Source of the DNA: a virus | IMG/VR virus record: IMGVR_UViG_3300045988_138926 | Location: 17,121 to 81,120 of that record | Reading direction: 5' to 3' (one strand) | Length of the DNA stretch: 64,000 bases | Shown here: piece after piece, positions 7,801 to 53,429 of the stretch | Position numbering within the stretch: the stretch's first letter is position 1 | How the letters are laid out: the number at the start of each line of letters is the position of its first letter | Program-made: the position numbers and the translations under genes | Notes under the pieces: model-generated | The model's input: only the letters and a program-made list of their open reading frames with translations | Told to the model about the DNA's origin: nothing | Databases searched by the model: none

Positions 7801-10800
7801 GTGTATGATAAATACAAACAAGATTTTGATGATTATGTATCGTCTTTGGGTGACAGTCCTGTTAATCTCATAAAATCATTATCTGAGAAGGCTGATAGGC
7901 TTACAAGTCCGAGATCTGTGTATGAGGATAATAAAGCTATTATTGATATGGCTAAATCCAATTTAGAACCAGATCAAAGGAAGGAACTTGATGATGCTAT
8001 TTCTTCGTATGTTGATATAATGAACAGACGGGATAAAGGGGAGAAGGTTGACGAAGATAAGCTTGCCGATTCTGTATTTACCATAGAAGATCTTGGCCAG
8101 GTTGGAAACATCACAGATCTCCTTCCTTATATCGAACAAAACAGGATTATTGATAAAGGTCGTATTTCCGAATCTACGTTAAGTAATTTTGGGGAGGATG
8201 ATACCAATATAGATTCTCTTGTAAATGAGTTAGATGAATCCGATAATACGCCTGGAGCTAACATAGATAGTGCCCAAAATCCAGAGACGTTGATGGTTAG
8301 AAGAATATCCAACGATGGCAACGAAAGGTATGAAATTGCGGGTCTTAGAGCCGATAAATTTATATCTTCTATAAAATCATTGGTTCCTATTCAAATAAGC
8401 TCTGAAACGAACGCTAATGGTACTAAAAGGTATTCTCTTAACATAGGTGGAGAAACGGCTACTATAATTGAACTGCCTTATCATGCGAGATGGTCTATAG
8501 ACAAAGAATCGGCTCGTGTTCTTAACCGTTACACAGACGTGTCTATTCAGGACGTGGGTAATTCCTATTCTTTGGTTTATAAGCGTCTTGATTCAGATGA
8601 ATTGGTTCCGTACAGAACGGGTGTCGGATTCGGAGAGAATGAGGTAGATAAAATAGATCAGGAAGCATTATCTTCTTTGAAAAAAGGAGATAAGGTTAAT
8701 CTCGAAATAGATGTAAATGATACTTATAATCAGTCTCTTTTTGCCGAATACAATGATGCTGTTCAGTCCGGCGATAAAAAAAGAATAGAATCTGCTGAGA
8801 ATAAACTGGTGTCCAATATGGTTATCAAGGTCATGAGTGGGAACAGATTCGTTTCTGTTGTAAAAGCTGATACAGGAGGCATAGATGGTATAAGTAAAAT
8901 AAGAAGAACGGCTTTTAACAAGTGGAAGAAGGACGCCGGCCGGTCGGCTACCATCGGCGTCGGCACGCATGTTGTTGCCCAGACCCTTCCCGGAAGACCG
9001 GTGTTTAACATGAAGGTGAACGGTCAAGGATATGGCCAGATAGAAAATCTCCCTATTACCGAAAAAGGTGCTGAAAAAGTATCTGATGTTGGATATGTAT
9101 TAAATGGCAAAGTCGTGCTTAAGAACGGATCTAAATACACAGGCTTCCCATTTGCTTATTCTATATTAAATGACAAGGGGAATAATTACAAAAATGTAAG
9201 AGTTCCGGTAGTCGTCATCAAAGGTAAAAACGGTCTTAATTATCTTTTCCCAGTTAGCCTACGTTCTGTAGAATCAGAGGAAGGGCAGAAATGGATGTCT
9301 TTTATAGATATGCTGCTTGAATCTGGTGATTCTGAATTGCTACAGATGGGTCAAGATGACATACAAGATCTTAATGCGTATCTAACCAAGTTAGGTCTTG
9401 ATCCGGCTTCGTATCAAGTATCGTATTTGAATCCTATTTCAGGGCTTAGAAAAGCTCGTGAGGCTATAGAAAAATTATCTACGGTTCCTGATGTTGTTAA
9501 GTGGGTAGAAGATGAAAGCAGGAATGTGAAAGACATTGTGACGTCTGAAGTAGAATCTGGAATAGATTTCGAAGGTGAGATGTTTGTCGCTCCTAAGATC
9601 AGGATTCAGTTTGGCAAATCATCTTCCAGACCTAAATCGCTTATAGAGGATGATCTTCCTTTCTCTGATGAGGGTAAGACCGTTACTTCTAAGGTAGAAG
9701 ATGTGGAAGTTTATGAAGAGGAAATGCCAGAGGAAGGGGCTGTCCGGGAGACTCAGCCGGCGCCATTAGCTCAGCCGGCTCCTGCGGCACAAGCTGCACA
9801 GTCTTTACCTGGCAAGAAGCGTACCTCCAGGAAAAACTTCTCTCTTATGTTAAACGAAATAGAATCTCATATAGAAAAAGAAGGATTGCTGTCTTATGCT
9901 AATATTTTTGATTTTATAGCAAGAAAGATTGTAGGAGGTGATTTGAGGTTTCTTCGTGAGAGAGGTAATCCTAAAAGTCTTAAGGAGGAAATGGGATTAG
10001 AACCTAAAGGAACAGTAGGTGATAAAATATCCACTCCTTCCAGTAAAGGTGGTAAGACCTTAGAAGAATACGTTTCTTGGCTTCGTTCTCAAACAGATCA
10101 GGTGGTGGTTGATTATGTTGGTCCAAGATCTGACGAACAAATTATATCAGAGTTGAAAAACTTTTTGAAATATATTAATTTTGTTCCAAGCAAGGCTTTG
10201 AATTATTCTCTTAGAGTCAATGGCATGGATGCCCTAAAAGAATATGGCACAAAAGAGGAAGTAGAAAAAATGGAATCTGACATCAATAGTTTGGTTTCTG
10301 AAGTTTTGCCTACGGTAGATAATCAAACTGTAGAAGATGTTTCTACTGCAATAGAATCAAATAACCTGCCTGCCATATGGAGACCTATGGAAAGCCTTGA
10401 TATGACAAACGAGGAAAAAATAGAGTTTTTGAATAACGTAGCAGATTTCCTTAGCGGCATTCCAGAGTATGATGCTGTTGTGGAGTCTATAGAGTCAGAA
10501 TCAGATAATATTTTAAATGATGGAAAAGAAGGAAGTGCAGAAGGCGGTGCAGTACGCGCTGAGGAAGATGGCGATAAAAAGGGAGATGGAAAAAGAGAAG
10601 GACAACCCAGAGATGATGGCAAAGCTGAGGGAGATGTCTATTTACCTGGATCTGAAGAAGGAAGAGTAGATAACTATAAGAAGAACGGAGATAAGTTCTC
10701 TGATATTGCCGAAGTTACTTTATGGTTACTTAGAAGGGCTGCCGGCATAACCTCTATCCCGGAAGGAGAAGAGGTTTATGTAGAGGGGGATGAAGTTAAT

Positions 10801-31347: not shown

Positions 31348-31977
31348 TTATTTAAATCTCCATATATATCCATAAGCCATGAACTTATCCCCTCTACATA
31401 CCTTTGATACAAAACTTGGATCATATCCGTCATTCGCCACAGATGACACCGATTCGTAGTTCTTTAAAACATTCCCCTCTTTATCTAATTTTAAAACTTC
31501 TTTTTTTAGGTGATCGTATAATCCATTTTCATGATTCAATATTGATGCTTTCGACATCTTTTCTTTTACATTTCTTCTGCTAAAAACATCTTTCATTGAA
31601 TTTGCAAGTTTCTCTTTAACATCCTCTCTATTCATTGCTAATTTTAAAGATTTCGAGGCGTTTATTCTTGTTTGTGGAAAATTACAATTCTCTTTTGGAG
31701 TGCACCATCTTAAATTGTCGCTTCGATTATCATTTCTTATACAATTTATATGATCAACATGATTTTTCCATTCTTCTTTTTCACAAAATGCCAATGCTAC
31801 AAGCCTATGTACATAGAGTTGTTTTAGCACTCCCTCTCTTCTTAAAGACACAGTATTATATCCATTTTCTTTTTCTTGCTGTTTCAATATTTTCATGCTT
31901 TTCAGACTTCTAATATTACCCATATTACTTACTTGATATCCATTATATCCGTCAATATCAGCCCATTTTTCTTCCAT
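31348..31977 (-). CDS. free-standing HNH homing endonuclease (HNH_3 / NUMOD-type)
   Basis: NGYQVSNMGNIRS ... LYVHRLVALAF ... VDHINCIRNDNRSDNLRWCTPKEN. Flanked by 70-85 nt gaps unlike its neighbours. Confidence 0.75.
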   Translation of the reverse strand: MEEKWADIDGYNGYQVSNMGNIRSLKSMKILKQQEKENGYNTVSLRREGVLKQLYVHRLVALAFCEKEEWKNHVDHINCIRNDNRSDNLRWCTPKENCNFPQTRINASKSLKLAMNREDVKEKLANSMKDVFSRRNVKEKMSKASILNHENGLYDHLKKEVLKLDKEGNVLKNYESVSSVANDGYDPSFVSKVCRGDKFMAYGYIWRFK

Positions 31978-31992
31978 TGTTATTTCGCTTTT

Positions 31993-32517
31993 TTATATTA
32001 ATCCCTTCCCGTGCTTATCATACCACAGCATAGTTATCACATTCCATGCAGCCGCAGCTAAATGGTGCACGTTAGTCTCTTTATCCATTCTCTCTCCTTT
32101 CAGGTATGCCATTATATGCCTGGCAGCCGCAGCACGATACCGTTCAAACCCGTTGTCAAGGTTCTGCCATTTATTGGGTCCGTACTTCTTTGCACCAGCA
32201 TGATAGACTCTTACAATGTCTTCAATCTCCTCCATTGGAAGTAAATCCCATCGTAGTTTATCGTCAATGATGTCATTTTTCACCGATTTGTTTTCTCTGG
32301 ATACTTTGACAGGAATAATACCCATAATATCCGTTTCTGTGACGAACGTCTCTCCATTGCAACAAACCTCGGCATATTCATCATTTACTTCTATGTCTGA
32401 TACCGCCTCGACTATAGCTCCTTTGGTGATTTTAAATTTGGAGCTGATTACATCGTCTTCCAACATGCGAAAAATAGATCCTTTTGGATAAAGGATATTT
32501 TTAGTATTATCATCCAT
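31993..32517 (-). CDS. hypothetical protein, 174 aa, possible nucleotide pyrophosphohydrolase-like (DUF5664-like) C-terminal domain
   Basis: YHAGAKKYGPNKWQNL...ERYRAAAARHIMAYL...HHLAAAAWNVITMLW. This resembles a phage dNTP pyrophosphohydrolase N-domain pattern. Low certainty. Confidence 0.5.
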   Translation of the reverse strand: MDDNTKNILYPKGSIFRMLEDDVISSKFKITKGAIVEAVSDIEVNDEYAEVCCNGETFVTETDIMGIIPVKVSRENKSVKNDIIDDKLRWDLLPMEEIEDIVRVYHAGAKKYGPNKWQNLDNGFERYRAAAARHIMAYLKGERMDKETNVHHLAAAAWNVITMLWYDKHGKGLI

Positions 32518-35847: not shown

Positions 35848-36867
35848 TCATCGCTTTATCTTTTTAGACGGATCCCAATCTGAAGAGAAAGGGCATTCGT
35901 TTTTGTTATGTAATCCAAAGTCACAATAATAACACAGTGCCGACGGGCAGGGTAGCTTGTTTTGCGAAACAGGCTGGCTTAGGGTGGCACGCCGCTTGCT
36001 ATACCTGGCTCCTTCTGCTCCCTGGATGTACGCTTGAAATGATTTTACACTATTATCTTCAAAATCATACATTTTAGATAAAGTGTCATTTAGCATCTCT
36101 ATAGATTTTGTTTTACGTTCCTCATCCACTTTAACCTTTTGGTATTGTCTGGTCCTGGTAAAGAAATAGATGTTCATATCTGGCAGAACTCCACCATATT
36201 TTCTATAGATGTAAAACGAATATATAGGATGCTGTAAATTCGTTTCCAACTTCTTAGAATCAAAAACCTTATTACCTGATTTCCAATCTATGACATAATG
36301 GTGAACTACGTTCTTGCTCTTTATAGCCAGATGAAGATCTACCGATCCTACTATGTACACATGTGTATGAACGTCACCATTTATATCAACAGGCTTAGGA
36401 AGACGATACGGCAGCACAAAATCTTCTTCGACTCCAATTATAGCGCCGTGTCTGATAAGTTTCTCACAGGGATTAAGATCACTATCAGCTATCATAAACC
36501 TATTGCCATCTTTTTTAAACAGATCCACAATCCAAGCAAGAAGTTCCCCAGATTGCTTCATGGCCATCATCATATTTTCTGGTGATTGCCAAGGTATGTC
36601 TTCTTGGTAAGCATAGTAACTTATCGCTTCCCCCAGGTCTTTGCCAGAAGGCTGTCTTCCGTTCTTAAAGAAGTATTCCAGTGTCTTATGGATAACCGTA
36701 CCATAGGATGTAGCTTCTTGTTTTTCCGTAGACCTTTTGCCCTCCACGTAAGTTTTATACCATTTCATTGGACAAGTAAGAAACGTATCTATCTGGGAAT
36801 AAGATATGGCAAGACGTTTCACACCATTAAACTCCTTATATAGCAAATGCGTTTCCGGGACCATCAT
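35848..36867 (-). CDS. Cas4/RecB-like PD-(D/E)xK exonuclease with Fe-S cysteine cluster (putative)
   Basis: N-terminal Cys (FLTCPMKWY). Core D...VIDWKSG. C-terminal CPSALCYYCDFGLHNKNECPF (C-x5-C-x2-C-x9-C). This is the Cas4/AddB nuclease architecture. Confidence 0.45.
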   Translation of the reverse strand: MMVPETHLLYKEFNGVKRLAISYSQIDTFLTCPMKWYKTYVEGKRSTEKQEATSYGTVIHKTLEYFFKNGRQPSGKDLGEAISYYAYQEDIPWQSPENMMMAMKQSGELLAWIVDLFKKDGNRFMIADSDLNPCEKLIRHGAIIGVEEDFVLPYRLPKPVDINGDVHTHVYIVGSVDLHLAIKSKNVVHHYVIDWKSGNKVFDSKKLETNLQHPIYSFYIYRKYGGVLPDMNIYFFTRTRQYQKVKVDEERKTKSIEMLNDTLSKMYDFEDNSVKSFQAYIQGAEGARYSKRRATLSQPVSQNKLPCPSALCYYCDFGLHNKNECPFSSDWDPSKKIKR

Positions 36868-37211
36868 AAGTCATTGTCTTTAAATCCTTCTGGGTAATAT
36901 ACGACATACTTCTTACCGTCTTCTGGTGTCATGGCAAACTGCATGTAGTTATTACGATTACGATGCTTGCCATCCAATCCTCGTTTCCAATACAGGATAC
37001 CGTCTATATCCACATAAGATCGGCCGCGGTCGGCTCTAACCACGTCCGTGTGTAGCAGATACCCGTCGGAAGACACAATCCACACTTTATCCCCTTTGCT
37101 TAAATAAGATATTCTTTTTCTTACAACAACCCTTTTCTTATTATCCAATACAAATTCCTCGTCAGTCATACTCTTCATCCTCCTCTTCTTCTGTTTCAAA
37201 ATCAATTCCAT
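36864..37211 (-). CDS. hypothetical protein, 115 aa, immediately downstream (minus-strand sense) of the orphan omega-RNA-like element
   Basis: ORF. No IscB similarity. Confidence 0.5.
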   Translation of the reverse strand: MELILKQKKRRMKSMTDEEFVLDNKKRVVVRKRISYLSKGDKVWIVSSDGYLLHTDVVRADRGRSYVDIDGILYWKRGLDGKHRNRNNYMQFAMTPEDGKKYVVYYPEGFKDNDL

Positions 37212-37311
37212 ATCCCATATTCTATTAAATATATTTAAAGTTATTCGTATGTTTTAATACATCCCCTCGGAGACCTTTCGGTCTCCTTGGTAGATGTAAA
37301 TCCCGTTAGGG

Positions 37312-37523
37312 ATAAGTCAGGATTTCTCCTGTAAGTACCCATCGCCAATGTTATAAGAGGTTTTATATAATGGCAACACTGTTTCGTCAAATACACTACT
37401 CCTGTTTAATCACCATCCTTAGAGCTACGGACTTGGGTAAACATCCGTAGGTAACTATCTATTCTCAAATAACGTAGCCTTCGTTTCAAGGCTTAGGCTA
37501 ATAACCCGATCTCTGAAAGAGAT
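37312..37523 (-). ncRNA. orphan IscB-type omega-RNA (HEARO)-like structured RNA, paralog of the element upstream of iscB
   Basis: About 75 percent identical over roughly 210 nt to 49176-49387 in the same orientation. Differences are compensatory in at least three stems: cagga/tcctg vs cagag/ctctg, agcctt/aaggct vs agtgtt/aacact, and atctct/agagat vs aatagc/gctatt. Strand is inferred from the iscB copy. Confidence 0.55.
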
Positions 37524-37750
37524 GTATTAAACTTTTATAATAGAATTATATTAGTTTAATACTATTTGGGGTTATAACACTGATCATAATGCTTGGTCAG
37601 TTCTTCTGGTTCTAAATCTTGTCCAAAATCCATGTTAAAAATATCGTAATTAGTAAAGCACTAAAAATCACTATTCCTGCTGGCATGAAATCTATAAATG
37701 CTGCTTTTGCTTCTTCAATTAGGCCCAAGTGTAACCTTGGGCCATTGTAT

Positions 37751-45328: not shown

Positions 45329-46648
45329 TTATATTACAAATCTTTTAGACATTTCCTCAGCAATATCATATACGACAATATGATCCTCTTCATTGTAAGG
45401 CTTATTGATATTCAGCACTCCCTTTCTCACTTTGAACCTCTTGTCTTTTCTGATATGATTCAACATCCCTTGTTGGAATACACAGTCTGCCTTCTCCATA
45501 GCAGCATTTTTATCAGACCATTCTTTTAGCGTATAACCTTTACTGTTCGTGCTTTTTGGAGAAAAATTCATAATACGTGCATCAATTCCGTACCAGTTTT
45601 TAACCATTCTCCTTTCAGCCTCCAATTGAAAAGCATGTTCATTTCGTATGTCACCTGATTTAAAATCTAAGATAACAATCTCTTCTTTCTCCACTTCTCT
45701 CACTTCCTTCTTCGGATCTCCTTTTTTGAACTGCCCCGTAGCCCTTTGATATACGGCTCCAAAATAACCTTCTTCTTTGTATTTGAATGTCATTTTAACC
45801 ATCGCATCAATAGGTGTTGCTACAAGGTAATCCTCTAAAGAAAGGATTCTTTCTATCATCATCGGCTTAACCTTATACTCCGAACAAAACTTAGCAAACT
45901 TCATAACTCTGACAATCATATCGTCAAGATCATCTATGCTACCAAAGAATTTGTCAAGATTCTTTTTCGATATCTTCAGCTTGCCTTCTTGCACTGTCTT
46001 AACTATAAAACTTCGATTTAAGACCATATCTCTACCTGTCAAGTACAATCCATATAGGTAGTGCATGATCGTTCCTTTATCTGCATCATATTCTGATACT
46101 TCTTCCGGATTGCGACCAATCATCCTCATCTCCTGTCTCCATTCTTGAAGAGCCGTCTTGTCATCTACGAATCCGTCTCTGATCATGGTTGTTACCGAGG
46201 CGTATATCTTGGCTGTCCCATCGTCCATCTTTCTTACATAAAAACGATTACCGTCTAATGTCAATCTTACGAATTTGGGAGTCTCGATCTTCTTTAACTC
46301 ATCACAGATATAAAACGGTTCTAACGTTTCCTGATTTTCTGTAAACGGATTCGAATCCTCTTCTCCAGGGTTAGGAGCGGCTTCCTCCTCCGGAGCTTCC
46401 GGTTCCTCCTTCTGGGCCTGCTCTGGCTCAGGCGCCGGCTCTTCAACTACTGGAACCTGTCCACCTCTTTCCGCTATGTCTCTGTTCTTTATTAAAGACA
46501 TAACCTCCTTCTTCAACTGCTCCGGTGTTTGATTAGGATCTGACACCGACATCACAACATCGTTCATTCTAAACAACGTATTTCCTTTTCCCTCCACCAT
46601 AGGTACAAACCCTAAATCTGTCAATATTTTTATTTTCTGTTCTATCAT
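45329..46648 (-). CDS. hypothetical protein, 439 aa, possible PD-(D/E)xK nuclease domain
   Basis: Acidic Pro/Glu linker, then ATPIDAM...EIVILDFKSG...QLEAERR motifs compatible with a PD-(D/E)xK fold. Confidence 0.55.
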   Translation of the reverse strand: MIEQKIKILTDLGFVPMVEGKGNTLFRMNDVVMSVSDPNQTPEQLKKEVMSLIKNRDIAERGGQVPVVEEPAPEPEQAQKEEPEAPEEEAAPNPGEEDSNPFTENQETLEPFYICDELKKIETPKFVRLTLDGNRFYVRKMDDGTAKIYASVTTMIRDGFVDDKTALQEWRQEMRMIGRNPEEVSEYDADKGTIMHYLYGLYLTGRDMVLNRSFIVKTVQEGKLKISKKNLDKFFGSIDDLDDMIVRVMKFAKFCSEYKVKPMMIERILSLEDYLVATPIDAMVKMTFKYKEEGYFGAVYQRATGQFKKGDPKKEVREVEKEEIVILDFKSGDIRNEHAFQLEAERRMVKNWYGIDARIMNFSPKSTNSKGYTLKEWSDKNAAMEKADCVFQQGMLNHIRKDKRFKVRKGVLNINKPYNEEDHIVVYDIAEEMSKRFVI

Positions 46649-46730
46649 CGCAATTTCTCAATTAATTCCTCTTTAACATAATACAACACAGTTACAGTCT
46701 CATCAATATCTGTGGCTGCTTTCTCAAATA

Positions 46731-47252
46731 CTATTTGGGGTTATATCTGTCAATTATTTCAATAATCAACCTACCTCTTTCTTTAATCATTCCCCTGCTT
46801 TCCATATCCAGTACCTTCTTTACCGCATATTTCCACACAAAAGGAAATTCTGTTTCAAGTTTATCAAATTCTATCCGGTCAAGATACATGTCGAATACCG
46901 TATGCTCCGATTCATGTAGAAAAACTATATTATCTCTGCAAGTGGCAACCGACTTATATATCCTTTTCGGAAGTATGTGACATACGTTACATACTGTAGG
47001 AAAATGAATAGCCCTACCAGTCATAGACATCCGAATACTATTTAGCTCTTCCAGCATAAGACGAAAAAACCCGGATAAATCCGGGCTCTCTAACTTTTTC
47101 TTCTTGCTGCTGTTTTTAATGGATGTAATTCTGTTTTTCTTCTTCGGAGTCAACTCTTTGCTCCTGCAAGCCTGGCATAAGCCATGACTTCTTATCATCA
47201 CTTTTCGTCCGCATCGTTCGCAGACGTATAGCTTCTTTTCCTTGCTTTCCAT
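46731..47252 (-). CDS. zinc-ribbon protein, 173 aa
   Basis: CERCGRK...CQAC at the N-terminus. Confidence 0.5.
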   Translation of the reverse strand: MESKEKKLYVCERCGRKVMIRSHGLCQACRSKELTPKKKNRITSIKNSSKKKKLESPDLSGFFRLMLEELNSIRMSMTGRAIHFPTVCNVCHILPKRIYKSVATCRDNIVFLHESEHTVFDMYLDRIEFDKLETEFPFVWKYAVKKVLDMESRGMIKERGRLIIEIIDRYNPK

Positions 47253-47437
47253 TCGAATAATAATGATATTATTGAAAAGAACAATCCCGCTGAAGCCAGT
47301 AGATAAGGTACGTTCATTAATAATTTAGATACCTCGTCTGTCTTAATCACTATCAGAAGGAAAGCGCCTGCTGAAAGCAATGATATTATCGCCACAACAA
47401 GCGCTATGTTGGAAACTACATCAGCCTTACTCTTCAC
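47198..47437 (-). CDS. small membrane ORF, 79 aa
   Basis: Two hydrophobic helices. Overlaps its neighbour. Weak. Confidence 0.3.
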   Translation of the reverse strand: MKSKADVVSNIALVVAIISLLSAGAFLLIVIKTDEVSKLLMNVPYLLASAGLFFSIISLLFEWKARKRSYTSANDADEK

Positions 47438-47924
47438 TCTTCTTCTCGCCTAATTTTTCAGCTCCCTTCTGAAGATCGTATTTGAATACGTCAATGATCT
47501 TCGTTTCAGCAATAGCTTCGCAATTCCAGTCTCCTAACGTGCCCTGCATACCTTTAGTTAACACAGCTTCGGCATCTTTAGGATTGCCGGCTTGGACATA
47601 CATATAGCATGGCGTTTTCTTTTCTTTACCTTTCTTTTCATCCAGTGTAATGTAATTCACCTTGCACTTATACCAGTACTCAGCTTCTCCGTTGAAAAAG
47701 ATTTCTGACACTTTAATAGGGTTAATTTTTACAACCTCGAAAGAATTGTACAAATCCTTAAAGATCTCCAACGATCTTGATTCTGCCTCTGTATAAGACA
47801 AGGCATCTACCAAATACTTTTCAGTTACTTTCTTTTTTTTGCCGTTCTCGATATTATCAATCTCGGCTTTTACCGTAATTTCAAACCAACGATTCATGTC
47901 TATATTTTTATTCAAATTAATCAA
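47427..47924 (-). CDS. hypothetical protein, 165 aa (TTG start in track; the ATG at codon 10 is a more likely start)
   Basis: ORF. Confidence 0.5.
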   Translation of the reverse strand: MINLNKNIDMNRWFEITVKAEIDNIENGKKKKVTEKYLVDALSYTEAESRSLEIFKDLYNSFEVVKINPIKVSEIFFNGEAEYWYKCKVNYITLDEKKGKEKKTPCYMYVQAGNPKDAEAVLTKGMQGTLGDWNCEAIAETKIIDVFKYDLQKGAEKLGEKKSEE

Positions 47925-49147
47925 TCCATTTCCTTTTGTACCATAAAGCGTTTACACCTTGATAATTTCAATTTCTTGTATGTAATATCTCTTTGGTTTT
48001 TACCATCAATATCTCGAATATTAAAACTACCGGTTTTACGCCTTGCAAATATAAAGTAATAACTGTTTTCAAACATAACCCTATCAAACAATCGGAAACC
48101 AAAAACTTCAAAAGGAGATTGATTTGGTCTTTTTATCCCTCCTTTTGGAATCTTTTGTTTATGGATCTGACGATTATGTCTTCTTACTAATCTTACTTTA
48201 TAATAATAACCTAACCTTATAGCATCAAAGTTTTTAGAAATAACAAATGCATCGAAAACATGAGATTTTTCAATACCATGTTTAATCCTATTGTATTTTG
48301 TAACATAACCGAAAGTCATAGAAATGTTGTCGTATTTAGATTTTAGTTCTTCATACAATCTCCATTTCATTATTCCCATTACGGCTGCGTCGCGAAGCGA
48401 CTTGCCTCTTCTGATCTTTAAATCTATATTACCTTTATGGTATTCTTTATGACAAGTTTCACATAAGGTAATAAGATTAGATGGGGAATCTCCACCTGTC
48501 TTTCGTGATTCAATATGATGAACATTCAATACTGGGTCTTTTGACTTTCCCTTACAATGCTGGCATTTATGTCCATCTCTTGCTAAAACATATTCCCTAA
48601 CGTTCCAAAATCCAAGTTGATCACCCTCCTGATATTCTTTACCTGATATATTAGGATTGTTAATCTTTTGAGTATCAAATTGAGCTACTTCGATAACAAT
48701 ACGAGATATTGGTAATATAGAACATACATTGTCAATAACACGAATATGGGCGTCTACTTTGTATTTCACCGAAGGTGCTACCCATCCCGGACGCTTACTT
48801 TTTATTCTATTATCAAAACGAGGTTTTCTATATCTCAATCTATTTCGTCTTGATCTTCGTAGCTCCCTTCTGGTAGACAAAAGATCTACAATATCATTTC
48901 TAAGGATTACTTCACTACTGTAAAGTTCTTTGCTTTTCGTTGTAGCCGATAAACCAACATGTTTAGTACCAGCATCAACGCCTAACACAATTTCTTGTTT
49001 GTAATCAGATGTTACGTACATTAATTTGATGGTAAACGGACATAGGTTTACAACGACTGCCTTTTTGTCTTTAAGCAGTCTCCTAACCTTACCATGCCTT
49101 GTTGTGGGCATCATAGGTTTACCATTTATGTCTTGTACGTACACCAT
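47921..49147 (-). CDS. iscB: IscB, RNA-guided HNH+RuvC nuclease of the IS200/IS605 (OMEGA) family, 408 aa, catalytic residues intact
   Basis: PLMP-like N-terminus (KPMMPTTRHGKVRRLL). RuvC-I IVLGVDAGTKHVGLS. Arg-rich bridge helix RRELRRSRRNRLRYRKPRF. RuvC-II IVIEVAQFD. HNH CQHCKGK...NVHHIESRKTGGDSPSNLITLCETCH. RuvC-III HVFDAFVIS. Confidence 0.85.
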   Translation of the reverse strand: MVYVQDINGKPMMPTTRHGKVRRLLKDKKAVVVNLCPFTIKLMYVTSDYKQEIVLGVDAGTKHVGLSATTKSKELYSSEVILRNDIVDLLSTRRELRRSRRNRLRYRKPRFDNRIKSKRPGWVAPSVKYKVDAHIRVIDNVCSILPISRIVIEVAQFDTQKINNPNISGKEYQEGDQLGFWNVREYVLARDGHKCQHCKGKSKDPVLNVHHIESRKTGGDSPSNLITLCETCHKEYHKGNIDLKIRRGKSLRDAAVMGIMKWRLYEELKSKYDNISMTFGYVTKYNRIKHGIEKSHVFDAFVISKNFDAIRLGYYYKVRLVRRHNRQIHKQKIPKGGIKRPNQSPFEVFGFRLFDRVMFENSYYFIFARRKTGSFNIRDIDGKNQRDITYKKLKLSRCKRFMVQKEMD

Positions 49148-49175
49148 ATCTACAAACGTTTTTAATGTTTATTCA

Positions 49176-49387
49176 ACATAAGTCAGAGTGAAACTCTGTT
49201 AGTACCCATCGCCAATGTTATTTAAGGTTTTTTTGTAAGCAACACTGTTCCTGAATACCAGAACTGTTTAATCACTTACCTTAGAGCTACAGACTTGGGC
49301 AAACATCCGCAAGTAACTATCTATTCTTAAATAACGTAGTGTTTGTTTCAACACTTAGGCTAATAATCGGAATAGCTTTTGGCTATT
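49176..49387 (-). ncRNA. omega-RNA (HEARO-type) scaffold upstream of iscB
   Basis: Lies 29 nt upstream of the iscB start. Hairpin-rich (cagag-tgaaa-ctctg; agtgtt-tgtttc-aacact; aatagc-ttttg-gctatt). Has a covarying paralog at 37312-37523. The guide segment is expected just beyond 49387. Confidence 0.6.
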
Positions 49388-49600
49388 ATGCATAATACAA
49401 TACAAATTGGTTATGATTTGTATGAGTTATGTATTATTCTCGATTATTCGTAGCTACGAAATACTTACACCCCTCTAAGTGCGTCAGGGCTTCAATTATA
49501 GCATTCTTTATCTCTTTTTCTTCCATTATGTTTGTTTTTTTTGGACAAAGATATGTCTTTTGATAATAAAAAAGATTCAAAATGATTTAATTTAGCTTAA

Positions 49601-50044
49601 TTACTGCTCTTTTGATTCGTCCGGTATAGGCATGTCAAACTTTTTTCTGATAAACGACTCTGTTTCTTCATTGAATGGATAGGCTTCCTTAATAAAATTC
49701 ATAGCTACTTCCATGTCACCGTCTGCTATATCTTTATACCTTTCAAAGATACCAACCAGGTCATTGTTGTATGAACGTTCTTGTTTTATGTTGTACACGT
49801 ATTTCAATACCCTGTCTTTAATTTCATTGGCTTTTTTCACAGTATCATTGAAGGAATTTGCACTTTCCAATTCTGGATCTTTGTTTTCCTTGTTTACCTT
49901 ATCAAACTCTTCCTCGCTATATCCTGCTTCTCCTGTAATGGCTGGGCAAACACTTTCCTCTATGATCCAAAATTGTTCATACGAGCCTGTCAGAAACCTT
50001 GATTCTATTTTAAATGCATTATATTTAACAAGCAAATTAGCCAC
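49601..50044 (-). CDS. hypothetical ORF, 147 aa, between iscB and tnpB; may overlap the TnpB right-end/omega-RNA region
   Basis: ORF with no HuH transposase motifs. Confidence 0.35.
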   Translation of the reverse strand: MANLLVKYNAFKIESRFLTGSYEQFWIIEESVCPAITGEAGYSEEEFDKVNKENKDPELESANSFNDTVKKANEIKDRVLKYVYNIKQERSYNNDLVGIFERYKDIADGDMEVAMNFIKEAYPFNEETESFIRKKFDMPIPDESKEQ

Positions 50045-51260
50045 CTCAGTTGCACCTTCTACGGTTCTAAAACCGATGCCGATATCTTTTAACTTGACAC
50101 ACTCCCATCGCTAAAGCAAATGGGATTCTTGGATACAAACGCAAGAAACCCCGATATTAATATCGCTGGAATTACTCTTGCTCTCCAATTCGGAAATGCC
50201 CTTCCGAAGTATATTACGGGCTGCAAGAACATCACGGTCGTTAACCGCGCCGCACGACGGGCATACCCACGTGCGGTCGCGTAACGACAGTCCTTTATTA
50301 ATGCAGCCACATTCACAAGTTTTGGAAGAAGGATACCATTTGTCAATCTTGTGTATCGTTACTCCATACTTTGAAGCAACGTACGTAAGTTTATCAATAA
50401 AAGAAGAATGACTAAGATCGGAAACTTTCTTTCCCCACAAACGTCTCATTCCTTCAATGTTTAGATCTTCAATAAAAATATAATCATATTGTTTACACAA
50501 CTGGTGTGCTAATCCCCATTGAAAGTCTGATCGAAGATCGTTTATTTTACGATACGCTTGTTGGAGTTCAAACAGTCTCCTTCTTCTATTGTTGGATCCT
50601 TTCTTTGCATTAGAAAGCTGTTTGTTTAGTTTTCTAATCTTGTTTTGATATTGTTTGAAGAATAGAGGAGAATCAATTTTGTTACCATCGCTTTTAGTTA
50701 GATAAGTTTTCAGCCCAAAATCCAACCCTATAGATGCACCATCATGTGTCTTTCTATAAGAGTTTATAAGATTATGATCTGTAATAATTATCAGGCTATA
50801 TCGATAGCATGTTTCTCTAACTATTCTAATTTGTTTAACATTACCTTCGTAGACTCTACTGTATGAAAATCTAAATCGTTTCTTTCCTTTATTGATTGTT
50901 AGACAATTACCATTCAGGGTAAACCCACCTTGTTTGAATACAAAAGAATTGAATTTCTCCGGTGATTTAAACTTAGGAGGTCGTTTAGCCAACTTCTTAA
51001 AGAAACGATTATAAGATTCATCAAGACGTTCAAGTATTTCTTGCACTGTTTGGGAATGAAGAAGATTTCTTTTTATCCTTTTAGCAAAATGCTTCTTCAT
51101 CTTACCAATTGATATATATTTTCCAAACAGTTTGTAGTATCTACGTTGTAGAGCTAACGCATGATTCCATACAAAACAACATTCTCGAAGCATTTTGTCC
51201 AGATACTTCGTTTTCTTGGAATGATAGATGTTGTATTTGTATGAAATCATTTTTTTATTT
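49950..51260 (-). mobile_element. IS200/605-family TnpB-only element; right end and omega-RNA expected within about 49950-50250; boundaries approximate
   Basis: Inferred from TnpB, whose omega-RNA derives from the ORF 3' end plus right end. No TnpA ORF nearby. Confidence 0.4.
50111..51250 (-). CDS. tnpB: TnpB, RNA-guided RuvC nuclease of the IS200/IS605 family, 379 aa
   Basis: RuvC-I ASIGLDFGLKTY. RuvC-II IFIEDLNIEGM. Zinc finger CECGC...CPSCG. RuvC-III NDRDVLAARNI. The 3' part is locally GC-rich relative to the rest of the window. Confidence 0.85.
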   Translation of the reverse strand: MISYKYNIYHSKKTKYLDKMLRECCFVWNHALALQRRYYKLFGKYISIGKMKKHFAKRIKRNLLHSQTVQEILERLDESYNRFFKKLAKRPPKFKSPEKFNSFVFKQGGFTLNGNCLTINKGKKRFRFSYSRVYEGNVKQIRIVRETCYRYSLIIITDHNLINSYRKTHDGASIGLDFGLKTYLTKSDGNKIDSPLFFKQYQNKIRKLNKQLSNAKKGSNNRRRRLFELQQAYRKINDLRSDFQWGLAHQLCKQYDYIFIEDLNIEGMRRLWGKKVSDLSHSSFIDKLTYVASKYGVTIHKIDKWYPSSKTCECGCINKGLSLRDRTWVCPSCGAVNDRDVLAARNILRKGISELESKSNSSDINIGVSCVCIQESHLL

Positions 51261-51325
51261 GTAATTTTGATTCAAAATTAATCAAACCAATTCATCCACC
51301 TTCTAAAGTATGGTGGTTTTGTTGG

Positions 51326-51511
51326 TTAAATAATCATAAATACTGGAACTCCCGTTCTTGGATACACGACTTCTTTTTCGTTCTTTATATTCCAGTTTTT
51401 AGCTTCAATTGGAATACCTTTACCAGCAAGCTCTTTGTCTATATACAGATATATCTCTTTGCATGTCAATGACACAATCTCATCTCTGCTTAAATCAAAA
51501 ACTGTTTTCAT
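51326..51511 (-). CDS. small hypothetical ORF, 61 aa
   Basis: ORF in the co-oriented array. Confidence 0.3.
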   Translation of the reverse strand: MKTVFDLSRDEIVSLTCKEIYLYIDKELAGKGIPIEAKNWNIKNEKEVVYPRTGVPVFMII

Positions 51512-51711
51512 TTTTTTTTATTCATTAAATTAAACAACTTACTTCTTTGTTCAGGCTCCGTATATTCCACCCATATATCGGCTGCCACATTTCTAAGAAA
51601 TTCCATAAAGTCTTGATGATCCCTATATTCAGTAGAATCTATTTTCTTTATAAAACTTAGGATTTCCTTTAGCATTTTATTGTTTTCTTCAAGAAGCTCT
51701 CTGTCGGTCAT
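51508..51711 (-). CDS. small hypothetical ORF, 67 aa
   Basis: ORF coupled to its neighbour. Confidence 0.35.
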   Translation of the reverse strand: MTDRELLEENNKMLKEILSFIKKIDSTEYRDHQDFMEFLRNVAADIWVEYTEPEQRSKLFNLMNKKK

Positions 51712-51732
51712 GATCTCGTGAAAATATATTAT

Positions 51733-52068
51733 TCAACATGTAATAGGCAGTAAATTTTCGATGTAGGCCCATCTTACGATATGGAAAATTCTAACAGCTA
51801 TTTTCCAATTAGAGTTATTTGGCCCACAGACAATAGGAGTTTCATCTTGTTTAATAGCAATCAACATTCCACTGTGTTGTGGTGTTTCGCTTGCATCATG
51901 CCACGCACTGTTGATGCTCCATTCTGCACCCGCCATGAAGTCTTCACGGCAATTATCCTTGCGTAAAGCATAATCGTCTGCATCCACTTCTTTGATAACG
52001 TTTCGCCTAAAATGTGTTTTACCTATGGAATAATCTTTTGCTGCTTTTTCAATATCTTCTCGTTTCAT
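51733..52068 (-). CDS. hypothetical protein, 111 aa
   Basis: ORF. Confidence 0.45.
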   Translation of the reverse strand: MKREDIEKAAKDYSIGKTHFRRNVIKEVDADDYALRKDNCREDFMAGAEWSINSAWHDASETPQHSGMLIAIKQDETPIVCGPNNSNWKIAVRIFHIVRWAYIENLLPITC

Positions 52069-52081
52069 TTCTTTTTAAATT

Positions 52082-52501
52082 TTACAGCATAGATTGAACA
52101 TATTCCAAATATTCTTGAGCTTGTTCAGGGGATTCGAATTGAGATGTCTCTTCGTTATATAAAGGAGCATAGTTGGCTTGTTTCAATAAATTGTCGTAAA
52201 ACATATTGATGAATATTTTTAATAGATCGGCTGTATTATTCGCTGTTCCCATTGTTACTCCATGACATCCATCTCCCATATTTACATATTCGTTACTAAA
52301 AGACATCCCACCTTTTATACCATATCGAATTTGAGCGATGTATATGCGTTCGAAATGTACTTCAAACCAAAGATTATGTTCTGATTTTTCATATTCTTTG
52401 ATTGATAAGCAGAATATGCCAAAAACAAATTTCAACTCTTCTTTTGTAATTTCTGCCGGATTTTTTGTCAATATTTCTTTAACTTGTTCTTTCGTTATCA
52501 T
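52082..52501 (-). CDS. hypothetical protein, 139 aa
   Basis: ORF. Confidence 0.5.
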   Translation of the reverse strand: MITKEQVKEILTKNPAEITKEELKFVFGIFCLSIKEYEKSEHNLWFEVHFERIYIAQIRYGIKGGMSFSNEYVNMGDGCHGVTMGTANNTADLLKIFINMFYDNLLKQANYAPLYNEETSQFESPEQAQEYLEYVQSML

Positions 52502-52661
52502 GATTCGCTATTTTTTAAAGTTTATCTATTATTTTGTTACCCATTTCCTGCCATTCATCACTCACGCTTATAACCAATCCTATGACAGTGAATGATAATA
52601 ACAACGTAAAAATAAGCCATAACAGAAAGCAGATAAAAACACATACATACCTCATGATTTT

Positions 52662-53429
52662 TTAGTTGTTAGATAAAAGCAAAATCGGTTCATTTGACTC
52701 CGCAATTGCTTTTATTTGTTCTGGATTGATAAAACTCTTGACTTGTTCACTTATCTTACAAATAGATTTGATCATATCAACGAATAATTTTGAGGTGCAT
52801 TCGTTGCATTCCACTTCCATTACCGGCTTATGTCGATTGTATGATATGCATGTTACATAATTCAGCCAGTGCGCATAAGTTCCTTTTTCTGTATTTAACC
52901 TGCCGTATTCTACTTTTGTCTCTCCATTACCATATTCAATTACTCTTTTTAGAAATGGTTTTGCATAAACACTAAAACCGAAAGGTTGGGTGTTTAAGGC
53001 ATCTAAACGAGAAGTTCCATCTCTCCATTTCCCGTTTTCATCACCTCCTGTCCATTCTTTAGAGGCATTAGGGACAATATTTCCATTTTTGTCATATGAA
53101 AACATGCAATTCGTTTCCAGTTGATACTTAATAACAGGCACTTCCTCTACTATTTTATAACTCAAACATCTCTTCAGAACTTCCCTGATTTGACTTTCCA
53201 AGTCAGAAAGTGCTATACTATTGAAATATCCTTCGTTGCCTAATCTGTTTGTAGGTAATTTGATCCCATAAGAATGAATCTTATCCACATCTTCTTTTGA
53301 CAAGGTAGTGGTAAACACTCCTTCTTTGGTGACATTTACTTTAACAGTTACGGACAAACTGTTGTTAGCATTCTTTTCCGTTATATTTAGTGTTGTTAAT
53401 GCTGCCATAATCAGATCTTTTAAAATCAA
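52662..53429 (-). CDS. hypothetical protein, 255 aa
   Basis: ORF. Confidence 0.55.
   Translation of the reverse strand: MILKDLIMAALTTLNITEKNANNSLSVTVKVNVTKEGVFTTTLSKEDVDKIHSYGIKLPTNRLGNEGYFNSIALSDLESQIREVLKRCLSYKIVEEVPVIKYQLETNCMFSYDKNGNIVPNASKEWTGGDENGKWRDGTSRLDALNTQPFGFSVYAKPFLKRVIEYGNGETKVEYGRLNTEKGTYAHWLNYVTCISYNRHKPVMEVECNECTSKLFVDMIKSICKISEQVKSFINPEQIKAIAESNEPILLLSNN

Follow-up and report, generated by a model that had tools for sequence, protein, structure and literature searches.

The 64-kb window analysed here, the whole 64,000-nt stretch taken from IMG/VR record IMGVR_UViG_3300045988_138926 (all coordinates are those of the window), contains three insertions that resemble IS200/IS605-family transposable elements encoding RNA-guided (OMEGA) nucleases or their RNAs: a TnpB element, an IscB element and a mini-element that carries an omega-RNA only. 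The three elements and the genes of the IscB/TnpB region all lie on the minus strand. Read along this strand, tnpB is followed by a C-terminal fragment of one phage gene, a small remnant of another, the IscB omega-RNA and iscB. An earlier sequence-only reading described IscB as directly followed by TnpB in the same orientation; the common strand stands, but TnpB is the upstream one of the two, and the phage-gene pieces and the omega-RNA lie between them. Judged by sequence similarity, the host is an epsilon crAss-like phage. Its closest annotated record, the 151-kb human-gut phage crAssE-Sib (OR575929.1), shares about 88% identity with it over the flanking genes. From their identity and anatomy, the three elements are very probably separate non-autonomous insertions of the IS200/IS605 (OMEGA) family. 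The IscB and TnpB insertions are neither a tandem array nor domesticated.

The TnpB element (50094–51335, minus strand) is a non-autonomous IS605-family element of 1242 bp that starts with GATTATTTAACC and ends with GTGTGTCAA. Its tnpB open reading frame (50111–51250, minus strand; 379 aa) is intact, and the protein matches the Pfam families OrfB_IS605, the Cas12f1-like TNB domain and a helix-turn-helix (HTH) domain. It can be aligned with ISDra2 TnpB (PDB 8bf8/8exa) over residues 11–352 (E = 1.4e-30). In this alignment the RuvC residues D (GLDFG), E (FIEDL) and D (NDRD) coincide with those of ISDra2 TnpB, and the zinc-finger cysteines are kept. The element ends are identical at about 20 distinct sites represented by 80 related IMG/VR loci, and the flanks beyond them are unrelated. 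The crAssE-Sib genome has no TnpB element at exactly this insertion point, where its sequence reads ..CCAGTATTTAT|GTTAAAAGATGTCGG.. At every one of the approximately 20 distinct sites the element is preceded by TTAT or TTTAT; in the window this adjacent motif is TTTAT (core TTAT; 51336–51340, minus strand), directly 5′ of the element. Empty sites were recovered for six TnpB positions, and they read TTTAT followed by the flank, with no target duplication. The left boundary was ambiguous by 1 nt; the empty site TTTAT|TGTAAG assigns the G that follows TTTAT to the element. Each end carries a subterminal hairpin when folded as DNA, CCACCATA-CTTTAG-AAGGTGG at the left (51296–51316, minus strand; z −2.9) and CCCATTTG-CTTTAG-CGATGGG at the right (50104–50124, minus strand). 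The CTTTAG loop is common to both, and copies show covariation in the stem of the right-end hairpin (in locus L097, for instance, it is CCCACCGCC/GGCGTGGG).

Conservation among the TnpB copies stops at ..GTCAA, and the flank that follows differs site by site. The predicted omega-RNA scaffold (50094–50283, minus strand) overlaps the last ~170 nt of tnpB and stops at the right end of the element, only 17 nt past the tnpB stop codon; the placement at about 49950–50250 given in the sequence-only reading is therefore not supported. Across 42 copies, RNAalifold gives a consensus of 53 pairs, and compensatory changes occur in 8 of these. The GC content is 50% in the last 190 nt, in the 3′ part of tnpB, versus 33% in the rest of the open reading frame, and synonymous divergence is 0.078 over the overlap between tnpB and the omega-RNA versus 0.39 upstream. 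The GC-rich 3′ patch reported in the sequence-only reading is therefore real, but it reflects an omega-RNA scaffold embedded in the coding sequence rather than a recent arrival. By family architecture, the predicted guide is GTTAAAAGATATCGGC, the 16-nt flank that begins immediately 3′ of the right end (50078–50093, minus strand). The corresponding target in crAssE-Sib differs from it by one mismatch.

The TnpB element splits a phage gene, 222 aa long in crAssE-Sib, leaving 60 codons before the insertion and about 163 after it. The N-terminal fragment (51336–51511, minus strand) is 92.6% identical to positions 9833–10209 of locus L001, and its junction is the insertion point; the C-terminal fragment (49601–50093, minus strand), for which the listed open reading frame starts with GTG at 50044, is 81% identical to positions 9188–9833 of the same locus. 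Removing the element in silico restores an open frame of 224 codons. The intact 222-aa protein matches no Pfam family at the curated threshold. Rescue of the split gene by splicing, as in an IStron, was considered and rejected: there is no group I intron at the 5′ end of the element, where only 85 nt separate the left end from the tnpB ATG, and an Rfam scan by E-value over 46000–53000 found no intron family around TnpB and IscB. The TAG stop of tnpB (50111–50113) is in frame with the downstream phage-gene fragment (50044–50110), with no stop between them, and its read-through would fuse TnpB to the C-terminal fragment. Recoding of this stop was also rejected. Open reading frames of more than 2000 codons are unbroken under the standard code, and the window contains no tRNA and thus no suppressor tRNA; therefore, the standard genetic code applies. 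The in-frame arrangement, expected once in three cases, is probably due to chance.

The IscB element (47898–49447, minus strand) is 1550 bp long. Its guide-side end starts with ATAATCGAGAATAAT and its motif-side end finishes with AATATAGAC. The intact iscB open reading frame (47921–49147, minus strand) encodes 408 aa with Pfam matches to RRXRR (E = 1.5e-60; residues 2–175, full model) and HNH (E = 3.7e-9; residues 195–238), and the protein matches the solved IscB structures (OgeuIscB, PDB 7utn/7xht) with E = 2e-43. The aligned catalytic residues are present (RuvC D, E and H..D; HNH HH..N), as are a CxxC..CxxH zinc motif, a PLMP-like 'PMMP' and an arginine-rich bridge helix. For both nucleases, then, the Pfam and PDB alignments agree with the identity and the intact catalytic residues assigned to them from the letters alone. 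The C-terminal region of IscB is conserved in length and sequence in more than 100 homologs, which are 406–408 aa long. The limits of the element are the points at which copies from some 13 other sites begin and cease to resemble it, and homology with crAssE-Sib breaks off at 49447/49448, the guide-side end. A different motif-side end, at 47937/47938, was indicated by the BLAST alignment with crAssE-Sib. It was rejected, because copies at other sites are similar down to 47898 and the apparent homology with crAssE-Sib joins AT-rich sequences.

The predicted IscB omega-RNA (49148–49447, minus strand) has a scaffold beginning at the first base of the element, with an extra 5′ stem-loop and two downstream hairpins. 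The Rfam HEARO model (RF02033) matches 49198–49414 on the minus strand with 110.4 bits, above its gathering score of 83, which bears out the omega-RNA proposed earlier upstream of IscB. Among 34 copies, RNAalifold predicts 81 pairs, 17 of them compensatory, with the extra 5′ stem included. The first helix is ATAATCG/CGATTAT here and ATAACCC/GGGTTAT in the mini-element, a covarying change. Position 49414, the start of the HEARO match, was also tried as the boundary between guide and scaffold, which would have placed the guide in AATACATAACTCATACAAATC. It was rejected in favour of 49447, because the 33 nt up to 49447 are conserved at all sites and form the covarying stem.

On its other side, the IscB element ends directly before an ATG (47895–47897, minus strand; CAT on the other strand, within ATTCAT here), its putative adjacent motif, which is also the start codon of a DUF4494 gene (47427–47897, minus strand). 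An ATG follows the element at all of the approximately 13 distinct sites, and at no fewer than nine of them it opens a co-oriented open reading frame of 82–919 codons. On the other strand, the motif of the IscB-type elements is NNYCAT at most sites. The allele without an insertion sequence (IS) at the window position reads ..TAATACA|ATGAATCG. In five loci (L043, L044, L047, L048 and L051) the ATG-side flank runs into an apparent 5′ half of a tRNA gene (ATGGTATATTTAGGACCCGTAGATCAATTGG), so the ATG beside the element is not always a start codon.

The predicted IscB guide, TATTTCGTAGCTACGA (49448–49463, minus strand), corresponds to the 16 nt that flank the scaffold on its 5′ side. Its position follows from where the copies cease to be conserved, and it lies within the remnant (49448–49526) of an 86-aa phage gene. 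In the common allele of this site the flank is ..ACGATAGTAA, which in IS-free genomes is followed by ATGAAG and constitutes the proper target. The window junction, ..GCTACGA|ATAATCG, carries a 6-nt deletion relative to the common allele, and the guide is shifted because of this deletion. As read from the junction sequence, the window IscB guide probably recognises only its own excision joint.

The third insertion (37212–37575, minus strand; 364 bp) lies about 10 kb from IscB and TnpB, outside the segment described in the sequence-only reading. It has no iscB and is PATE-like: it possesses element ends and an omega-RNA, lacks any protein gene and occurs at several sites. The HEARO model matches 37331–37575 with 102.7 bits, and there is no IscB open reading frame nearby. 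Compared with the empty site of crAssE-Sib, ..GATCAGTGTT|ATGGAATTG, the mini-element is a precise insertion before a start codon, and this fixes both its guide/scaffold junction and its motif-side boundary. The predicted guide, CATTATGATCAGTGTT (37576–37591, minus strand), is the flank beside the scaffold end, and the motif ATG (37209–37211, minus strand) is the start codon of the open reading frame 36864–37211. Copies are also present at two other ATG-flanked sites, in L039/L042 and in L065, which makes at least three sites in all. In its scaffold core the mini-element shares 81% identity with the IscB-linked omega-RNA, and we infer that it would rely in trans on the IscB whose gene lies 10 kb away; such an arrangement has been proposed for PATEs that bear omega-RNAs (PMC10055086). 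A subfamily of 400-aa IscB proteins, about 85% identical to the window IscB, is found in L052, L057, L063, L069–L073 and L079. Its elements have a different motif-side end (..GCATCCGATTATATTAAAG), and their 5′ omega-RNA region resembles that of the window mini-element. By sequence, this subfamily looks like the parent lineage of the mini-element.

In IMG/VR, each nuclease has about 300 relatives, nearly all on phage contigs of 80–155 kb, and some contigs carry two or three copies; 80 related loci per family (160 copies) were used to map the element ends. In a large protein collection, the top 120 IscB homologs have identities of at least 80% and come from contigs no longer than 160 kb. Among 185,579 species genomes, a scan that detects close relatives only found a single TnpB relative, with 56% identity. 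This relative (L165, JBGVNX010000030.1) is on an 86-kb contig of a metagenome-assembled genome of Candidatus Cryptobacteroides, and the neighbouring open reading frames look phage-like when their translations are read by eye. This contig may represent phage or prophage DNA that ended up in the bin of a Bacteroidales genome, and in that case it would give a hint of the host range. In GenBank phages, homologs of IscB occur in 31 records and homologs of TnpB in 377. The presence of TnpB or IscB in a phage is therefore not new, and the earlier impression that having both OMEGA classes is unusual finds no support in these numbers. In the paper describing crAssE-Sib, two TnpB-type 'transposases' are reported in some members of the group, IscB, IS200/IS605 and HNH are not mentioned, and 'homing' refers only to the diversity-generating retroelement of the phage (PMC11054128).

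Occupied and empty alleles were counted as exact-word junction matches among IMG/VR contigs. The TnpB target (TTTAT plus guide) is uninterrupted in 90 contigs and occupied in 3. The mini-element target (guide plus ATGGAA) is uninterrupted in 111 contigs, and also in crAssE-Sib, and occupied in 14. The DUF4494 junction, which is the IscB site, is uninterrupted in at least 120 contigs and occupied in 24. Thus the guides of TnpB and of the mini-element match empty alleles that most related phages still carry, and the match between the TnpB guide and the empty site of its own element supports the suggestion, made in the sequence-only reading, that the guides might act in homing. It is by the allele count, not by GC content, that the TnpB insertion at this site looks young. 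The same reading took the tight abutment of IscB by phage genes as a sign of an older or domesticated gene. This is not supported: the element ends before an ATG at about 13 sites and is a minority allele at the window site, and the abutment results from target choice and selection against disruptive insertions, not from age. All four combinations of presence and absence of the TnpB and IscB insertions are found among related contigs, and both occur together in only one IMG/VR contig. The two insertions were therefore acquired independently, as had been proposed.

Both proteins are under strong purifying selection. The ratio of nonsynonymous to synonymous substitution (dN/dS) is about 0.10 for TnpB, compared with 72 intact copies, and about 0.06 for IscB, at synonymous divergences of 0.4–1.2. 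The TnpB open reading frame is intact at the same length in 72 of 75 cases.

In both families the motif-side junction is fixed, and the guide-side flank varies among related phages. The large variants run from the motif to a neighbouring motif, with 129–296 bp or a whole small gene deleted: alternative TnpB flanks begin right after another TTTAT, and alternative IscB flanks end right before another ATG. About 190 bp of the 86-aa gene are missing at the window IscB site because of such a motif-to-motif deletion. Deletion alleles of this type, with a single element at the joint, are seen in L101 (5158–5460), L085 (5158–5290) and at the L005/L013 junctions. Self-cleavage had been considered as the cause of the variable guide-side flanks; for the large variants it was largely replaced, the flanks being bounded by other motifs. 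Their sequences fit either unequal recombination of copies that occupy adjacent motifs or aberrant strand transfer by the transposase, which suggests that the elements remodel phage genes by one of these routes. Small deletions (6, 10, 24, 6 and 12 nt) also occur exactly at guide-side ends, in the window (49448–49452), L003, L010, L077 and L083. They are found in both IscB and TnpB elements, and each of them shifts the guide.

The assignment of the elements to the IS200/IS605 family rests on several features. The TnpB element has the RuvC triad and zinc finger, an adjacent motif without target duplication, both hairpins and a covarying predicted omega-RNA, as in IS605 elements. The IscB element has the domain set of IscB, a HEARO RNA upstream on the same strand, a guide junction at one transposon end and a motif beyond the other. 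All 80 copies of the TnpB element are 1239–1243 bp long, and this constancy leaves no room for a tnpA gene inside it. A tnpA gene is found near only ~1.5% of iscB and ~25% of tnpB genes (PMC10055086). The lack of tnpA therefore makes the elements non-autonomous; it does not exclude them from the family, given that approximately 75% of tnpB and 98.5% of iscB loci lack it as well.

The closest known parallels are ISGst2 (TnpB2) and ISGst5 (IscB) of Geobacillus stearothermophilus. In both cases the guide lies outside one end of the element and the motif outside the other, most copies have no tnpA, IscB is co-oriented with upstream transcription, and there are PATE relatives bearing omega-RNAs. 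In Geobacillus, the IscB omega-RNA is bounded by the transposon end and its guide is outside the element (PMC10055086). The target-adjacent motifs were determined experimentally as TTTAT for GstTnpB2 and TTCAT for GstIscB (Meers et al., PMC10055086); the first is the same as that of the window TnpB, and the second is nearly the same as the ATTCAT at the window IscB site. This likeness is one of architecture and motifs, and the hosts differ, a bacterial chromosome there and epsilon crAss-like phages here. In contrast to the Geobacillus elements, the IscB-type elements described here sit, in nearly all cases, precisely at the start codon of a co-oriented phage gene, and their potential targets are alleles in other phage genomes, not sister chromosomes. 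With ISDra2 TnpB (PDB 8bf8, 8exa and 8h1j) the window TnpB shares a predicted omega-RNA that runs over the 3′ end of tnpB as far as the right end, a guide in the 3′ flank and a 5′ motif. It differs in its motif (TTTAT, not TTGAT), in the non-standard spacing of the first zinc-finger cysteine pair (C-E-C-G-C), in the absence of tnpA and in the 17 nt between the stop codon and the right end. OgeuIscB resembles the window IscB in the PLMP-like motif, the split RuvC, the bridge helix, the HNH insertion and a HEARO RNA immediately upstream, but it is longer (496 versus 408 aa), and the putative motif of the window IscB begins with ATG. Compared with the Rfam HEARO model, the window omega-RNA has an extra covarying 5′ stem-loop of ~45 nt. 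Finally, there is a functional parallel with phage homing endonucleases (T4 Seg/Mob, NUMOD4-HNH): the target is an allele without the nuclease gene, and spread is expected through recombinational repair during co-infection. Here, however, the target would be recognised through an RNA guide, automatically reset with each insertion, and new sites require a separate transposase.

These observations can be arranged into a possible life cycle, the steps of which are modelled on published work on ISDra2 and the Geobacillus ISGst elements. A Y1 transposase (TnpA) supplied in trans by the host or by another element would excise and insert the elements as single strands beside the motif. Transcription through the element boundary, either read-through or internal, would produce an omega-RNA with a 16-nt guide copied from the flank. 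The nuclease would then cut DNA in which the motif is joined to that flank, be it the scarless excision product or an uninterrupted allele, and the latter may belong to a sister genome or to a co-infecting phage genome. Recombinational repair from an occupied genome would copy the element back in, a process equivalent to homing or a gene drive. For an element in a phage, targets and templates alike would come from replicating genomes and from co-infecting relatives. Since the guides of TnpB and of the mini-element are aimed at empty alleles, these two could spread between co-infecting phages like gene drives. We put the chance that homing between phage genomes occurs through these elements at about even.

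Several observations weigh against this interpretation. No Y1 transposase (Y1_Tnp) match was found among the 48 open reading frames of 100–290 aa in the 64-kb window, so that the lack of a TnpA partner remarked on in the sequence-only reading extends to the window. No TnpA was found next to any of the 160 related copies, whose element lengths are constant, or in the one bacterial metagenome-assembled relative, and the crAssE-Sib paper reports only the two TnpB-type transposases. In IS-free alleles the sequence matching the window IscB guide precedes TAGTAA, not ATG. No convincing hairpin is seen at the motif-side end of the IscB element (DNA fold z +0.97). The C-terminal 76–89 aa of IscB (residues 320–408), the expected place of a motif-reading domain, show no sequence match to solved motif-reading domains in the PDB, and the AlphaFold model, built from a shallow alignment, has a mean pLDDT of 50 and is unusable, with residues 350–398 at ~70 and beta-rich. 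In addition, an active drive is not the only reading of the low counts of occupied alleles, which an insertion that is recent or mildly harmful would explain equally well.

Three other explanations can be weighed against spread by homing. The phage might have recruited the nucleases as weapons or regulators that exclude competitors or act on the host, rather than for the spread of the elements. Such a role would suit guides that match alleles of related, possibly co-infecting phages, as well as the strong purifying selection on proteins of a phage-restricted clade; moreover, phage homing nucleases are one means by which co-infecting phages can interfere with each other (review, PMC13565253), and domesticated TnpB derivatives are known (bioRxiv 10.1101/2023.11.30.569447). 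However, domesticated systems have a fixed locus, whereas each guide here is the flank of its own insertion and changes with the site. Both transposon ends are kept, many sites are occupied, the elements are minority alleles at each site examined, and the window TnpB copy disrupts a phage gene. Cutting an empty allele and homing into it would in any case be the same act, which makes a benefit to the phage only a by-product. We consider recruitment by the phage unlikely.

Somewhat less probable still is that the elements are stranded relics, which transposed in the past, have no transposase now and persist with inactive nucleases and RNAs as vertical passengers. The lack of TnpA in the window, in the bacterial relative and in the crAssE-Sib paper, the displacement of the window IscB guide by a junction deletion, and a few frameshifted or truncated copies (for example, L097, L109, L134 and some IscB loci) are what one would expect of relics. 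The dN/dS values of 0.06–0.10 over considerable synonymous divergence and the 72 intact TnpB frames out of 75 are not, and neither are the compensatory changes that maintain both RNA structures. Dozens of insertion sites in close relatives, with several copies per genome, rare and recent-looking alleles (for example, 3 versus 90) and the occurrence of the mini-element at three or more sites also speak against decay. The last alternative, that the two nucleases belong to the conserved core of this phage group and do not move, is the refuting condition named in the sequence-only reading. It is itself refuted, even though the two genes are co-oriented with the phage genes and tightly packed among them. 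The crAssE-Sib genome and many IMG/VR contigs lack them at these positions, and the elements have clear IS ends, with the IS-free DUF4494 junction in at least 120 contigs and the uninterrupted TnpB target in 90, and identical element ends recur at many unrelated positions.

All three elements lie within a block of early and replication genes. The genes around IscB and TnpB form a replication module, with a primase/helicase, a DnaB-like helicase, a replication factor, NinG and DUF4494. Elsewhere in the window there is a free-standing homing endonuclease of the classical type (31348–31977, minus strand; NUMOD4, E = 6e-15, and HNH_3, E = 2.5e-10), the gene of which adjoins that of a dATP/dGTP diphosphohydrolase (31993–32517). 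The window thus encodes a protein-guided homing-type nuclease alongside the RNA-guided ones. The open reading frames of 100–290 aa include one with a match to a Tad2-like (Thoeris anti-defence 2) domain (E = 3.8e-11) and one with a match to an antirepressor KilAC domain.

Bacteria and plasmids are the settings in which homing by TnpB and IscB has been demonstrated; its spread from one co-infecting phage to another has until now been considered only in theory (PMC13565253). What is new here is modest: TnpB and IscB clades restricted to epsilon crAss-like phages, IscB-type insertions abutting start codons, a guide-only companion element, and population data. This lineage is a natural data set, with hundreds of genomes, known frequencies of occupied and empty alleles, readable guides and a guide-only element, and it is for these reasons that phage-to-phage homing can be tested in it. 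The elements also explain several annotations in epsilon crAss-like phages, namely the 'transposase' and 'HNH endonuclease' calls, the split gene and the truncated small gene. In addition, the 408-aa IscB and the 379-aa TnpB, with their simple putative motifs, are compact candidates for genome editing.

Taken more broadly, epsilon crAss-like phages, which abound in the human gut, may host long-resident clades of IscB, TnpB and omega-RNA-only elements, possibly acting as RNA-guided drives between co-infecting genomes, although we hold this wider view only tentatively. If the elements do behave as gene drives, several of their peculiarities would acquire a meaning. An IscB-type motif that is CAT, the complement of a start codon, would direct insertions exactly before phage genes, and the AT-rich end of the IscB-type element would replace the native upstream region and make the insertion nearly harmless. 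One IscB would be armed by several guides, its own and those of mini-elements, in a CRISPR-like multi-guide system without an array. Finally, motif-to-motif deletion alleles would be driven through the population, and in this way the elements would prune the genes of the phage.

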